NCBI GenBank assembly: GCA_023443725.1
Contig: JAEZTF010000004.1
Coordinates: 38,971 to 102,970, forward strand
DNA length: 64,000 nt
Origin: Candidatus Parcubacteria bacterium
Lineage (GTDB): Bacteria > Patescibacteriota > Microgenomatia > UBA12405
Reading direction: 5' to 3'
In this document: positions 36,001 through 45,000 of the stretch, in pieces
Numbering within the stretch: position 1 is the stretch's first letter
How the letters are laid out: every line of letters starts with the position of its first letter
Position numbers: made by a program

Positions 36001-39000
36001 TGCTATTTTGACTAATGAAATTACCAAGGCTTGGACAGGAATGACAACCAAAGAATACAAAAGATTAAAGAATCTAAAGAAAGAAAATCTTCGAGACAAT
36101 ATGACTAATATGGAATTGGTGTTAAATATGTTGGCCGAAACGGCAACAACAGAAATTTCTAAAGTCAAAAAACCAGATACATTCCCAAAAAATAAACAAG
36201 TGGCCAAAGAAGGTGGTGAAATTGCTGGATCTGCCCGTAAAAATATTGAAGCAAAAACCGGTAAAAAAGTGATCACATCAAAAAGACATTTGGAGATTAA
36301 ATAATAGAAATTTTACTTTTAATTTCTTCTACAGAATAATTACCATTATTAAAACGGATCAAAGGAATGTTAAATTTGGCAAAAATAGCACCGACAAATT
36401 CGTCACGGTCAAAGCTTTTTGGATTTGAGTGAGAATAGCCGTCTAATTCAATGGCAATCTTTGGGGCTTGAGTGCTCTTGTTAAACAAAACAAAATCGAT
36501 TGTTTTATGTAATTTACTAATTTCCGCTCGGTTGTGCCACTTTTTAGTTGGTTGAAAAATTGATATTAAAGAAACTTGAGGGTATATATCATATTCATTC
36601 CCTACTGCCAGTTTGAGTTGTTCAAAGAAAGATTTTTCGTTTGGAAAAAGAAGTGAGGGGCGAAGATAAAAATTATCTGGAGTGATTTTTTTTGAATAAA
36701 AAAGATTTTTATTAGAATTTTCTGGATTATCTTTTTGATTATTGAACAAATTAGTAAATTTTTTTAGAAAAAAGAATAAAAATAGACCGATAATGATGAT
36801 TGTGTAAAATTCTGTCATAAATAAAGTATAGAATAAAAATATTTTTTCGGGTTTTGTTGGGTAGATAAGTCGTGAAAAAAGTGAGATTTGGGATAAAATA
36901 GGGATATGAGTGAAGAACAAAAGAGACTTTTGGAAAAACAATTATGGGCAGTAGCAGATGCACTGAGAGGGAGAATGAATGCCGACGAATACAAAAATTA
37001 TATTTTGGGTTTTATTTTCTATAAATATTTATCGGAGAAATTAACTAGATTTGTAGATGAAAAATTATTAAAAGGTGAAGAAGTGAAATTTGCTGATATT
37101 GATGAAAACACTGATGAAGGTAAAGCATATTTGAAAAATATTAAAGATGATTGTGTTGAAGAATTAGGATTCTTTTTAAAACCAACAGAAATTTTTGCTT
37201 ATTTGGTTAAAAAGGGCAAAGGAGAAATAAGAGGAAAAGATAATTTTATTTTGGAAGATTTAAAAAATGTTTTAAATAAAATTGAACAGACTTCAATGGG
37301 GACAGAAAGTGAAGATGATTTCAAAGGATTGTTTGAAGATATGGTATTAACTTCTCCAAAATTAGGCAGTGGTGAAAAACAAAAAAATGAAGTAATTATC
37401 GAAGTATTGAGTTTATTATCTGGAATTGATTTTAAATTGGAAGATTCAAAAAACGACTTATTGGGTGACGCTTACGAATATTTGATTGGCGAATTTGCCG
37501 CAGGTGCGGGTAAAAAAGGAGGAGAATTTTATACTCCGGCTCAAGTGTCAAGATTGTTATCACAAATTGTAGTTGGAGATAAAAAAAGAATCAAATCAGT
37601 TTACGATCCAACTTGTGGATCAGGGTCATTACTATTAAGAATTGGTGATTATGCTGAAGTGTCAACTTATTTCGGACAGGAACTAAATCCAACAACTTAC
37701 AATTTGGCTAGAATGAATATGATTTTGCACGGAGTTCATTTTGATAAATTTAAAATAAAACTTGGTGATACTTTGACTAATGACCAGAATGAAGATTTAA
37801 AATCTGAAGTAATAGTAGCTAATCCACCGTTTTCAGCTAAATGGAAAAGTGAGGCTGATCCAACACTAATAGCTGATGATAGATTTTCTCAATATGGTCG
37901 ACTGGCTCCAAAAAGTGCCGCCGATTATGCTTTTGTAACTCATATGATTTATCATTTGGCTGACAATGGAACTATGGCAGTGGTGTTACCTCACGGAGCT
38001 TTGTTTAGATCAGGAGCTGAAGGACAAATTAGAAAACATATAATTGAAAAACAAAATTATTTGGATGCAGTGATTGGTTTACCAGCAAATTTGTTTTATG
38101 GCACATCAATTCCAGCCACAATAATGGTGTTCAAAAAGTGTCGAAAAACTGATGAAGATATTTTGTTTATAGACGCTTCACGGGAATTTGAAAAAGGGAA
38201 AAATCAAAATAAATTGACAGATGAAAATATTAAAAAGATTTTAGAAACTTATCAAAATCGAAAAGAAATTGAAAAATATTCGCACAAAGCCAGTATGGTT
38301 GAAATTAGAGAAAATGAATATAACCTTAATATCCCCCGTTATGTGGATACATTTGAAGAAGAGATGGAAATTGATATAAATGCAGTGGCAAAAAATTTAA
38401 AAGAATTAAAAACCAAAGAAATTGACTTAGAAAAAGATTTGGCTAAATTTTGTGAAGAATTACAAATTGAAAAACCATTTTAAAATATGTATTTATCAAG
38501 ACCTAATTATATTCTTAGATTTGATAATTTTGGACTTGAAAATCATTTGAGAAATCGTTTGGATATTTTAGACTGGTTAAACAATTATCAAGGATTGGCT
38601 AATTGGTTAACGGCAATAGTAGCACTTGTAGCTTTATATTTTGCAATAAGGGAGTTTTTGTTAAAAATACGTCCCTATATAACAACTGATATTGGAATAG
38701 GCGAAGAAAAAGATGGGAATGGTAATTTATTGGCTTATCGTTTTTTCTTGATTCTAGTAAATAATGGTGATTATCTAGGTAAAGCAAAAATAACTAAAGC
38801 AGTATTAAAGATTGGGGATGAAATTTTTCCAACATATTTTAAAACTGCATTGATAGTTGGTAAGGGTGAAAATAAAAAATTGAGCGATCTTGGTCATATT
38901 AATCGGATTGGTATTAATAAGATAATAAATAAAGAATATAGAAATAATAAGATTACGATTGAAGTAGAAATTGTTTCAAAAAAAATAAGCGCAAAAAAAT

Positions 39001-42000: not shown

Positions 42001-45000
42001 GTTGATAATAATGAAATTAAGAAGGAAAACTTGAGTGAAGAAGTTGTCAAACGATTTGAAGATGTTTTTGATTGGATAGATCAAAAAATTAAAATAAATT
42101 TATGACACATCAGAGTGAATCACAACTAGAAACAAACTTAATACAACAGCTCCAAAGACTTGGTTTTGAAAAGGTGGCGATAAAAGACGAAAAGGAATTG
42201 ATTGAGAATTTAAAGAAACAATTGGAAAAATTTAATGGGATGGAATTTTCTGATGGTGAATTTTCTAAGATTTTAAATCACCTAAACAAAGGTGATATTT
42301 TTCAAAAAGGAAAAACTTTAAGAGATAGGTTCGTATTGGTGCGCGATGATGGAAAAGAAATTTGGATAAGATTTTTTAATACTGACCAGTGGTGTAAAAA
42401 TGAATATCAAGTCACCCACCAAATTACTGAAGTAGGAAAATACGAAAACAGATATGATGTTACCTTACTGATTAATGGTCTACCGCTAGTGCAAATTGAA
42501 TTGAAACGACGAGGAATTGAAATGCGAGAAGCGTTTAATCAAATTCAGCGATATCAAAAACATTCTTTTGCCGGAACACTGTTTGAATATATTCAAATAT
42601 TTGTAGTATCAAATGGAGTCAACACAAAATATTTTGCCAATAATCCAAAACAAAGCTTTGAACAAACATTTTTTTGGACTGATGTATTGAATAAAAAAAT
42701 TACTAGATTAGAAGATTTTACAGATATATTTTTGGAAAAATGTGCTGTTTCTAAGATGATTGCCGAATATATTGTATTGGCTGAAGCAACACAGATACCA
42801 ATGATATTAAGACCTTATCAATATTATGCGGTCAAAGCAATTGTGGATAGGGTAAAAGAAGGCAACAAGAATGGCTATATTTGGCATACAACTGGATCTG
42901 GTAAGACACTCACCTCTTTTAAAACTAGTCAGGTATTGGCTCGAGTTCCAGAGATTAAAAAAGTTTTATTTGTGGTGGATAGAAAAGATTTAGATGTGCA
43001 AACAATTAAAGAATTTAACTCTTTTTCAAAAGATTCAGTCGATGGAACTGATAACACTCGACAATTAGTAAAACAATTAAAAGACGAAAATACTAAGGTG
43101 ATTGTAACCACAATTCAAAAACTGGATATCGCTATTGGCAAAGAAAAATATAAGAATCAATTTGAAAAATTAGTTAATGAAAAAGTAGTAATTATTTTTG
43201 ATGAATGTCATCGAAGCCAGTTTGGTCAGGTCAATGCTAGGATAAAAGCTTTTTTTAAAAATGCTCAACTATTCGGTTTTACTGGGACGCCAATTTTTGC
43301 TGAAAATAATGTGGGCGGAGTAACGACAACTGATGTATTTGGTGAATGTTTGCATAAATATATTATTACCAATGCTATTTCTGATGAAAATGTTTTAGGA
43401 TTCGCGGTCGAATATGTGGGCAAATATAAACAAAAAGACAGTAATACTTTAAATAAAGATATTTTTGCTGAGACACTGGTAGAAGGAATTAATACTAAAG
43501 AGGTATTGGAAAGTGATGATCGGTTAAATAAAATTACTGATTATGTATTAGCTGATTGGAAAAGAAAAACTAAAAACGGTATGTTTAGCGCCATGATGGC
43601 AGTGTCAAATATTGAAGTATTAAAAAAATATTATTGTTTATTTAAAAAGAAAAAACCAACAGATTTAAAAATAGCCACGATTTTTTCTTATCAGATAAAT
43701 GAAGATGACAATATGGATTTAGAAACTGATATTTTTAATCAGGCCAATGAATCAATAAATAAACATTCACGAGAATTTTTGGATGACTGCATTGATGATT
43801 ATAATAAAGAATTTTTAACAAATTTTTCGACAGATACTTTTTATAATTACTACAAAGATTTACAAACTAGAATTAAAAATAAAGAAGTGGATTTAGTATT
43901 GGTGGTCAATATATTCTTGACTGGATTTGATAGTAAAACTTTAAATACTTTATATGTAGATAAAAATTTGCGATACCATGGGTTAATTCAAGCTTACTCT
44001 AGAACAAACAGACTATATAACTCTAATAAACCACACGGCAATATAGTTTGTTTTAGAAATTTAAAAGAAGCAACTGATGAGGCATTGAGATTATATGGAG
44101 ATGAAAATGCTAAGGAAGTGGTTTTCAAGAAACCGTTTGAGGAACAGAAAAAAGAGTTCGAAGAAAAATTGAAATTACTAAAAGAAAAAGTAGCTACAGT
44201 TGATGATGTTGATAATTTAGAAAGTGAAACAGAAAAAGCTGAATTTGTAAAAATATTTAGAAATTTGTTGAGAATAAAGTCAGGATTAGAAACTTTTGCT
44301 GAATTTAATTTTAATGATTTATCAATAACCGAACAAGAATTTTATGATTATCAAAGTAAATATTTGGATATTTATGAAGACCGAAAAAGAAGTGAAAATA
44401 ACGCCGAATCCATATTAGACCAAATTGATTTTGAAATTGAACTAACTGTCCGAGACATAATTAATTTTGATTACATAATATTATTAATTGCTGGACTAAA
44501 AGATATTGATTCTGATGAGATAAAAAAGAAAAAAACCGATGAAATATTAAAGATTTTTGATCGAGATATTCAATTAAGAAAGAAAAAAGATTTAATAAGA
44601 CAATTTATTGAAGAAAATTTACCAAAAATAAATGGAAAACATGAAGTAGAAGCTAAATTCAATCAATTCTGGAATGATGAAAAAAATAAAAAATTACAAA
44701 ATTTGGCTATAAAAGAAAATATTCCAATAGAAAAATTAGAAGGCTTGATAAATGAATATTTATTTAATCAAAGACTACCAAGAAGCCAACAAATAATTGA
44801 TTCTATGAATACTGCTCCAAAATATTTAGAAAGAAAAACAATTATAGAAAGAATTAAAACAGCTATCCAAAGTATAGTGGATGTATTTGAATGGTAAAAA
44901 CATTAAAATAATTTATGTCTCTTTATCAAATAAAAAACCAAAAGCTTCAAGCAATCAAAGAAGTTGTTTTTGAAAAAGAAAAACCACTTCATGATTTAAT

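Follow-up and report, generated by a model that had tools for sequence, protein, structure and literature searches.

Two accessory genes, one encoding an OLD-family ATPase-Toprim protein, embedded in a predicted type IC-like restriction-modification operon of a Patescibacteria-like metagenomic genome

What are two additional genes doing inside an otherwise complete type I restriction-modification operon, and does one of them provide a second layer of defense behind restriction? The question is raised by a locus at positions 36906-44897 of a 64,000-nucleotide stretch of metagenomic DNA (hereafter, the window), taken from contig JAEZTF010000004.1 (positions 38,971 to 102,970 of the forward strand) of assembly GCA_023443725.1, which is assigned to Candidatus Parcubacteria bacterium. 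The locus is an intact type IC-like operon, judging from its hsdM, hsdS, and hsdR genes, and carries two embedded accessory genes in a Patescibacteria-like genome. One of the accessory genes, designated orf199, encodes a small membrane protein, and the other encodes a 598-aa homologue of the OLD-family ATPase-Toprim proteins (the OLD-like protein). The interpretation that we favor, with a probability of roughly 55%, is that the OLD-like protein would be an autonomous ATP-regulated Toprim nuclease, expressed together with the restriction enzyme to form a second layer, and that orf199 would be separate cargo.

A type IC-like operon with two embedded genes

The open reading frame (ORF) listing places five ORFs on the plus strand, in the order hsdM, orf199, hsdS, the OLD-like gene, and hsdR:

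36906-38483, + strand: hsdM, type I methyltransferase subunit (525 aa)
38487-39086, + strand: orf199, uncharacterized single-pass membrane protein (199 aa), with a predicted transmembrane (TM) helix at residues 36-59 (nt 38592-38663)
39094-40299, + strand: hsdS, specificity subunit with two target-recognition domains (401 aa)
40309-42105, + strand: OLD-family ATPase-Toprim gene (598 aa)
42102-44897, + strand: hsdR, restriction/translocase subunit, type IC-like (931 aa)

These are exactly the positions given to the five genes in an earlier interpretation made from the sequence alone (the sequence-only reading), which described their spacing as 4-10 nt or overlaps. That description was essentially right, because the junction sequences show gaps of 3, 7, and 9 nt, followed by a 4-nt ATGA overlap between the stop codon of the OLD-like gene and the start codon of hsdR. 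No convincing Shine-Dalgarno sequence was seen in the junction sequences ahead of the four internal starts, which fits with possible translational coupling within the operon. The spacing is compatible with a single transcript, from which all five genes might be expressed. The extent proposed for the operon, 36906-44897, holds for the genes themselves, but its end is arbitrary, as a tight co-directional array runs on to ~52974.

The three Hsd subunits are all present and intact, as had been proposed, according to full-length matches to family models. HsdM matched the Pfam models N6_Mtase (1.2e-111) and HsdM_N (4.2e-20), TIGR00497 over its full length (468 bits; cut-off, 242.75), and PADLOC MTase_I (7e-164), and its translation shows the NPPF and DPTCGSG motifs. 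In HsdS, Methylase_S was found in two stretches, which correspond to two target-recognition domains, and the PADLOC Specificity_I matches were full-length, residues 3-401 being aligned with positions 7-411 of the 411-position model. HsdR contains HSDR_N (2e-35), SWI2_SNF2 (3.7e-63), T1R_D3-like, and EcoR124_C (5.8e-54) domains, which make up a nuclease at the N terminus, an SF2 motor, and a C-terminal domain of the EcoR124 type. It scored 500 bits against TIGR00348 and 1014 bits against PADLOC REase_I.

The OLD-like protein

The 598-aa protein consists of an ABC ATPase, matched by AAA_15 of Pfam at residues 1-369 (nt 40309-41415; E 4e-25), and a Toprim core, matched by OLD-like_TOPRIM (PF20469) at residues 425-487 (nt 41581-41769) with 26.1 bits versus a cut-off of 23.2. 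When the C-terminal 199 residues were searched alone, OLD-like_TOPRIM was the only Pfam match (27.9 bits), and the Toprim domain that the sequence-only reading had supposed in this half of the protein was thus recovered above the cut-off. The best PADLOC matches of the whole protein are partial, that is, AriA with 93 bits and Old with 89 bits, and the former is confined to the generic AAA_15 ATPase; PADLOC contains no dedicated full-length model for this family. Neither DUF4435 nor AriB matched the C-terminal half at E<=1 in Pfam and PADLOC, and the latter gave only weak matches to the Toprim region of GajA. The Pfam and PADLOC scans of the protein also returned no HEPN or PrrC match. Membership in PARIS was therefore rejected, and the analogy with PARIS that had been drawn earlier holds for the combined ATPase-Toprim architecture but not for the family. 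Gabija was rejected as well because no UvrD-like helicase is adjacent.

When the family profile was compared with the sequences of the PDB, the top match was 6p74, the Class 1 OLD of Thermus scotoductus (TsOLD). An AlphaFold (AF2) model constructed from 84 homologues had a mean pLDDT of 86.6 and a pTM of 0.77, and Foldseek ranked 6p74 first (6e-17), followed by Gabija GajA (8u7i and 8sm3, 1.3e-16) and then by the OLD of retron-Eco8. The identity to TsOLD in the Foldseek alignment is only ~13%. The earlier description of the protein as OLD-like, with an ABC ATPase joined to Toprim, is upheld by both sequence and predicted fold, which place it in the OLD family.

Across the 84 homologues, K36 (Walker A), D331/E332 (Walker B), H364, E433, D437, E523, and K554 are invariant, the signature-like motif S304-K305-G306 is invariant or nearly so, and position 486 is always D or E. 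The Toprim residue E433 and the acidic D437 four positions on align with the LVEGYGD segment of TsOLD. E523 and K554, which lie downstream of the Toprim core, are candidate counterparts of the metal-B glutamate E508 and of the conserved catalytic lysine that have been described in BpOLD, a Class 2 OLD (PMC6755086). A few database homologues have W at otherwise invariant glycines (G30, G35, G306, G334, G434, G461, G488, and G551); they look like genes with UGA=Gly (code 25) to which the source databases applied the code 4 translation.

Restriction-linked and solo homologues

A word-index search found 668 homologues of the OLD-like protein in many phyla. The best 120 of the 668, from Patescibacteria, Flavobacterium, Sulfurimonas, Cloacimonadales, and others, are 46-100% identical to the query and ~570-620 aa long, apart from a single fragment of 434 aa; their annotations go no further than "ATP-dependent nuclease" or "endonuclease of OLD family." The phage and plasmid collections yielded only distant OLD-like matches (<32% identity), and BFVD only OLD-like endonucleases of giant viruses. 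The window itself matched a metagenomic scaffold of 103 kb.

For the analysis of gene contexts, 78 genomic loci were retrieved, 74 of which were usable; ORFs were called, the neighbors were clustered, and representatives were annotated. A restriction-modification gene was found within three genes of the OLD-like gene in 30 of the 74 loci, on the same strand in 26 of them, and in 18 of the 32 loci whose homologues are at least 40% identical. An independent metagenome set gave a same-strand restriction-modification gene in 26 of 77 loci, or 12 of 33 where both flanks extend for at least 1 kb, and in 10 of the metagenome loci hsdR starts no more than 30 nt downstream of the OLD-like gene. Overall, ~35-55% of the homologues neighbor or are embedded in restriction-modification systems of types I, III, and IIG, and ~45-65% are unlinked. 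The commonest placement of the linked genes is directly upstream of the restriction subunit gene, as is also seen in the Pfam domains of the immediate upstream neighbors (Methylase_S 9, N6_Mtase 6, Eco57I 6, N6_N4_Mtase 3) and the downstream neighbors (ResIII 12, HSDR_N 6). The arrangements are as follows, with M, S, and R standing for the hsd genes and L numbers denoting retrieved loci:

Type I, M-S-OLD-R: L004, L027, L034, L044, L068, and L070
Type I, M-OLD-S-R: L013
Type I with further inserted genes: L008, L050, and L063
Type III, Mod-OLD-Res: L053, L055, and L062
Type IIG, Eco57I/MmeI-like enzyme directly upstream, in overlapping reading frames: L006, L009, and L075 (Flavobacterium)

OLD-like genes also lie between or beside type III mod and res genes in L112, L121, L136, and L137. 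Where the identity of the OLD-like protein to that of the window is 42%, the HsdR partners are unrelated, with 25-29% identity. The operon companions of OLD-like genes are typically proteins with defense or abortive-infection domains, such as NYN, Abi_C, Abi_2, Fic, DUF3644, SLFN, and GmrSD. Informative loci at higher identities include the following:

L082 (OLD-like protein 94% identical): M-NYN-x-x-x-S-OLD-R
Contig carrying the homologue P0004 (93%): Abi_C-OLD-R
L086 (70%): M-DUF3800-NYN-S-OLD-59aa-R
Sulfurimonas hydrogeniphila (55%): type IB-like R-DUF1016-OLD-Fic-M-Abi_2-S

The arrangement of the window recurs in related genomes, as had been asked of it, since hsdS, the OLD-like gene, and hsdR follow one another in L004, L082, and L083 with the same 4-nt overlap between the latter two genes, an overlap that is also found on the contig carrying P0004. 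On the other hand, the sequence-only reading would have been weakened if the gene occurred widely outside restriction contexts, and this is partly the case, because about half to two thirds of the homologues have no restriction neighbor. Many homologues adjoin housekeeping genes such as those for trigger factor, LpxB, and Clp protease; one solo copy, 73% identical, lies beside a MarR/efflux operon, and another, 69% identical, lies ~740 nt downstream of a GmrSD gene. Because unlinked homologues are so abundant, and one is so close, the OLD-like gene is not an obligate partner of restriction-modification systems. Its association with them is strong and crosses system types, yet is facultative.

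Within the lineage of the window, the OLD-like protein and its Hsd partners show parallel identities to the homologues in L082, L086, and L004:

HsdM: 92/74/73%
OLD-like protein: 94/70/65%
HsdR: 95/71/71%

The dN/dS values versus L082 are 0.06 for the OLD-like gene, 0.06 for hsdM, and 0.04 for hsdR, and together with the parallel identities they indicate that the OLD-like gene is a stable, selected member of the operon lineage. DNA homology with L082 falls into two blocks, one of which covers hsdM (36894-38482), and the other starts at the conserved 3' end of hsdS and continues across the OLD-like gene and hsdR (40179-44155). The slot between hsdM and hsdS and the target-recognition domains of HsdS have been replaced between relatives, while both ends of HsdS are conserved. 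In place of orf199, the slot holds NYN and three unknown genes in L082 and DUF3800 plus NYN in L086, and it is empty in L004. The same junction is a cargo hotspot (L082:2726-5105, L086:5180-6713, and L087:12569-13156), and its cargo across relatives comprises NYN nucleases, DUF3800, an Abi_2/HEPN-like protein, and several unannotated ORFs. A comparison of L083:346-4931 with the window at 40309-44897 gave a dS of 0.07 for the OLD-like gene and of 0.74 for the adjacent hsdR. This contrast indicates recombination near the junction of the two genes, and strict co-adaptation is therefore not required.

Second line of defense, guard, or passenger

The interpretation favored here is that the OLD-like protein would act as an autonomous, ATP-regulated Toprim nuclease and form a second line of defense, and that its gene would be co-expressed with hsdR, probably by translational coupling, so that both layers would be present at the same time and travel together. 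orf199 would be separate cargo in the hsdM-hsdS slot, with a predicted cytoplasmic beta-rich domain. A defensive and autonomous role of the OLD-like protein is the most likely one given the sequence and locus comparisons, and its autonomy is suggested by the existence of high-identity solo copies, by the range of systems and gene orders in which the family occurs, and by the precedent of the Class 1 OLD of Vibrio cholerae.

Several observations weigh against this interpretation. The placement of OLD-like genes right upstream of the restriction gene in systems of types I and III, often with stop and start codons that overlap or abut, could exceed what is expected from hitch-hiking. Scans for promoters and terminators were uninformative in this AT-rich DNA, giving 81 promoter-like sites versus 100 expected. 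No restriction-modification genes are present in the four contexts of orf199 homologues that were seen, which consist of a Pseudomonas variable region near DUF4917, a locus next to the gene for an RHS-type protein, and two contigs that were not informative. Finally, the DxD motif of the Toprim domain is degenerate, because D486-N487-G488 aligns with D-E-D of TsOLD and the second Asp is missing. G488 is invariant within the clade, and in the wider OLD-like family the DxD/DDD of distant members gives way to DDG and then to the DNG of this clade. No link between the variant of the motif and the restriction context was found, since restriction operons contain members with each of the forms DNG, DDG, and DDD. 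Because D-N-G lacks the canonical DxD, the protein is therefore filed as an OLD homologue by descent and predicted fold, with Class 1 architecture and a non-canonical metal site. Nuclease activity, which is assumed here, is plausible in spite of the degenerate motif because in BpOLD the role of the second Asp is limited to the positioning of waters on metal A, and the enzyme tolerates single substitutions (PMC6755086).

A different possibility, unlikely but to be taken seriously, is that the OLD-like protein serves as a guard or tripwire in the manner of PrrC or PARIS, either lying latent on the restriction complex or monitoring it. Once a phage has disabled the enzyme with an anti-restriction protein, for example with the DNA mimics Ocr or ArdA or with a peptide resembling Stp, the Toprim nuclease would be freed by the ATPase and would then cut DNA or tRNA and abort the infection. 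Such a role would agree well with the position of prrC in the type IC operon hsdM-hsdS-prrC-hsdR (PMC3014915) and with the shared logic of an ABC ATPase plus a nuclease, and also with the overlap of the stop codon of the OLD-like gene and the start codon of hsdR in the window and its close relatives and with the place of the gene immediately before that for the restriction subunit, in type I as well as in type III systems. In addition, inhibitors of first-line defenses are known triggers of OLD-type systems, in that PARIS responds to Ocr and Stp, and P2 Old to RecBCD inhibitors, according to the summary in bioRxiv 10.1101/2024.01.29.577857. The guard role is, however, difficult to reconcile with the large unlinked share of the homologues, one of them 73% identical; prrC, in contrast, is described as invariably linked to restriction-modification loci (PMC3458546). 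Moreover, the partner systems are of unrelated types (several type I families, type III, and type IIG), a diversity that speaks against a single specific protein interface; the OLD-like gene and hsdR of L083 differ in history, as their dS values indicate; and no similarity to AriB, DUF4435, or HEPN was found in the protein.

A bolder version, in which the whole clade is a dedicated guard of restriction enzymes that is translationally coupled to HsdR or Res, kept latent, and freed by anti-restriction proteins, and in which the D-N-G site and a third layer formed by orf199 are included, is improbable. If it were true, the clade would be a Toprim-based counterpart of PrrC across several restriction-modification types, the single-Asp D-N-G site might mean a changed substrate or nicking-only chemistry, and orf199 would add a third, membrane-based layer.

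It is quite improbable that both extra genes are selfish or neutral passengers that have settled in a mobile restriction operon at insertion-tolerant junctions (a "genomic sink") and contribute nothing to defense, the OLD-like protein serving DNA repair or an addiction module or having a dead Toprim domain. The degenerate DxD motif would be explained in this way, as would the turnover of the hsdM-hsdS slot among close relatives and the many homologues beside the genes for trigger factor, LpxB, and Clp protease, but the purifying selection on the OLD-like gene (dN/dS 0.06) is strong and like that on hsdM and hsdR, and the remaining catalytic residues of both the ATPase and Toprim are invariant in the 84 sequences. 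The operon companions with their typical defense and abortive-infection domains and the defense island of 17 kb around the operon, described below, also speak against neutral cargo.

orf199, a small membrane-protein family

With regard to orf199, which in the favored interpretation is cargo separate from the autonomous OLD-like nuclease, no match was found in Pfam, PADLOC, NCBIfam, or PHROGs, and a word-index search of 5.8 billion proteins returned only the query itself. Exhaustive HMMER searching of 1.84 billion representatives, in contrast, detected 41 proteins at E<=1e-3, including the query, 22 of them at E<=1e-10; in length the homologues resemble orf199, to which they are 27-48% identical. 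The idea that orf199 is an ORFan was therefore rejected. In the alignment of the family, a short N terminus is followed by a conserved hydrophobic segment, a juxtamembrane K-x-R-P-Y motif, and a beta-rich domain of ~130 aa, and P63, N92, G110, G136, and N154 are invariant. The hydropathy peak lies at residues 36-59, with a Kyte-Doolittle 19-residue mean of ~2.0, and from the flank charges across the family (-0.5 and +1.8 on the N and C sides, respectively) an N-out, C-in topology is predicted. The sequence-only reading had described a membrane-anchored protein of no recognized family, which agrees with the one strongly hydrophobic segment and the lack of library matches. The single-sequence AlphaFold model was poor (pLDDT 41), and the family profile matched no PDB entry at E<=10 and no consistent Pfam or PHROGs family. 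No member of the family was found in any other OLD-carrying locus, or in the phage and plasmid collections. In the window, orf199 has the same GC1>GC2>GC3 pattern as the neighboring genes and fills the entire 603-nt gap between hsdM and hsdS, leaving spacers of only 3 and 7 nt.

That orf199 is a chance ORF in the AT-rich hsdM-hsdS spacer is hardly credible, for although the word-index result, the lack of domain matches, and the poor model could be read in that way, the homologues of similar length, the TM segment and motifs (RPY, N92, G110, G136, and N154) kept across the family, the neighbor-like codon-position GC pattern, and the occupation of the whole gap all contradict it. Judging from these sequence features, orf199 is a real gene that represents a small, unannotated family of predicted single-pass membrane proteins. 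It is a candidate for a defense gene by position alone, because in relatives the variable slot that it occupies holds NYN, DUF3800, or nothing.

The surrounding defense island

Gene content marks the ~17 kb from 35.5 to 53 kb of the window as a defense island, with the following genes around the operon:

35486-36304, + strand: Bro-N/PDC-S13 (DinD-like) gene (PADLOC PDC-S13 2e-129; Bro-N 7.7e-8)
44915-45832, + strand: PDC-S18/DUF5655 gene, 17 nt downstream of hsdR (PADLOC PDC-S18 1.9e-97)
45834-46583, + strand: Cas4-like PD-(D/E)XK nuclease (PDDEXK_1 4.5e-13)
46632-49349, + strand: SF1 helicase AAA_11/AAA_12, 905 aa (AAA_12 1.3e-31; AAA_11 1.4e-24; PADLOC MkoC 3.5e-60)
49353-50144, + strand: SLFN/AlbA_2 protein
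50161-51747, + strand: trypsin-like (Trypsin_2) protease, 528 aa
to ~52974, + strand: two unknown genes

PDC-S18 is a defense candidate family that was defined by its embedding in restriction-modification, BREX, and DISARM systems. The array at 44915-52974 may be a second multi-gene defense module or a part of the operon transcript. Directly upstream of hsdM (35486-36818), the Bro-N/PDC-S13 gene is accompanied by a divergent DUF2726 gene, and a RhuM-family gene is found upstream of hsdM in L082 instead. Housekeeping genes resume near 54 kb. Upstream of the island, a minus-strand gene that extends to ~32808 (L001:1-2500) encodes an alpha-2-macroglobulin/MG2-family protein of >1635 aa with Hint/PT-HINT matches, as listed in the gene table for the source contig. 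Four tRNA genes (Ser-GCT, Arg-GCG, Ser-CGA, and Ser-GGA) lie at 6929-7869 and 19884-19971, and there is no other Rfam match at the gathering threshold in the whole window.

Significance

A two-layer arrangement of this kind is not new, because PrrC in EcoprrI and a survey of embedded defense genes (bioRxiv 10.1101/2024.01.29.577857) precede it, and the five-gene operon does not overturn current understanding. It provides a clean example from Patescibacteria of restriction operons as docking sites for second-line defenses. What is modestly new is a large clade of OLD-like proteins of ~600 aa (>600 homologues) that prefer restriction operons and have a D-N-G Toprim site, and the unannotated membrane-protein family of orf199. 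The preference of the clade for restriction operons falls outside the current scheme of OLD classes 1-4, and no paper on a restriction-linked OLD clade was found in open-access text. The clade and the orf199 family are candidates for phage-defense testing, and the clade lets one ask whether OLD-type ATPases sense anti-restriction proteins.

Comparison with known systems

OLD proteins are classified by their contexts, that is, solo genes (Class 1), Gabija (Class 2), retrons (Class 3), and PARIS (Class 4) (PMC10568477; PMC12392090). The 598-aa protein is most similar to Class 1, which includes P2 Old, TsOLD (6P74), and the OLD of Vibrio cholerae: TsOLD is the best match by both profile and fold, no helicase, reverse transcriptase, or separate Toprim partner accompanies the protein, and the Toprim Glu, the acidic residue four positions on, and a Glu and a Lys farther downstream, as candidate counterparts, are conserved. 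Class 1 genes have been described as single genes away from other defense genes (PMC10568477), whereas the gene in the window lies inside a restriction operon and ~35-55% of its family are restriction-linked; D-N-G in place of DxD and the identity of only ~13% to TsOLD are further differences. On the other hand, old genes have been found in species-specific operons, some of them defense-related (107/837; Schiltz et al., PMC6755086), and in Vibrio cholerae a Class 1 OLD provides defense on its own and serves as a back-up when DarTG is inhibited (PMC12392090).

The prr locus of E. coli, whose host system EcoprrI is of type IC (PMC3014915), is the closest precedent for the position of the gene, which occupies the same place between hsdS and hsdR of a type IC-like operon. 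PrrC likewise has an ABC-type NTPase fused to a C-terminal nuclease, and the concept of a second layer behind restriction is the same. The effector here is, however, Toprim and not a HEPN RNase, and the linkage of the OLD-like gene is facultative (30/74 genome loci and 26/77 metagenome loci) and not obligatory.

PARIS (AriA/AriB, Class 4) also combines an ABC ATPase with Toprim, and the ATPase half of the OLD-like protein matches the AriA model of PADLOC. PARIS normally consists of two proteins, AriB containing DUF4435, in contrast to the one polypeptide without a DUF4435 or AriB match found here, and the sole match to a solved AriA is a stretch of 50 residues around Walker B. GajA of Gabija (Class 2) has a similar fold and accounts for the weak Toprim matches, but the neighbors of the OLD-like gene are hsdS and hsdR in place of an adjacent UvrD/PcrA-like GajB, and the nearest helicase, the AAA_11/AAA_12 protein of SF1, is encoded three genes downstream and matches GajB marginally (1.4e-6).

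The broadest parallel is with the "guilt by embedding" survey of Payne et al. (bioRxiv 10.1101/2024.01.29.577857), in which defense genes nested in type I restriction-modification, BREX, DISARM, and Hma systems were collected, including HEC-04, an ABC ATPase-TOPRIM fusion, and the PrrC precedent. The family of the OLD-like protein has no full-length PADLOC model, and the orf199 family is absent from all the libraries that were searched, which sets both apart from the families of that survey. Nevertheless, genes embedded in type I restriction-modification operons were found there to be mostly defense genes and 96.7% co-oriented, and the locus in the window conforms to this pattern, with co-oriented accessory genes in a type I operon, an ABC ATPase-Toprim protein among their products, and flanking genes of PDC-S13 and PDC-S18, two families that come from the same survey.

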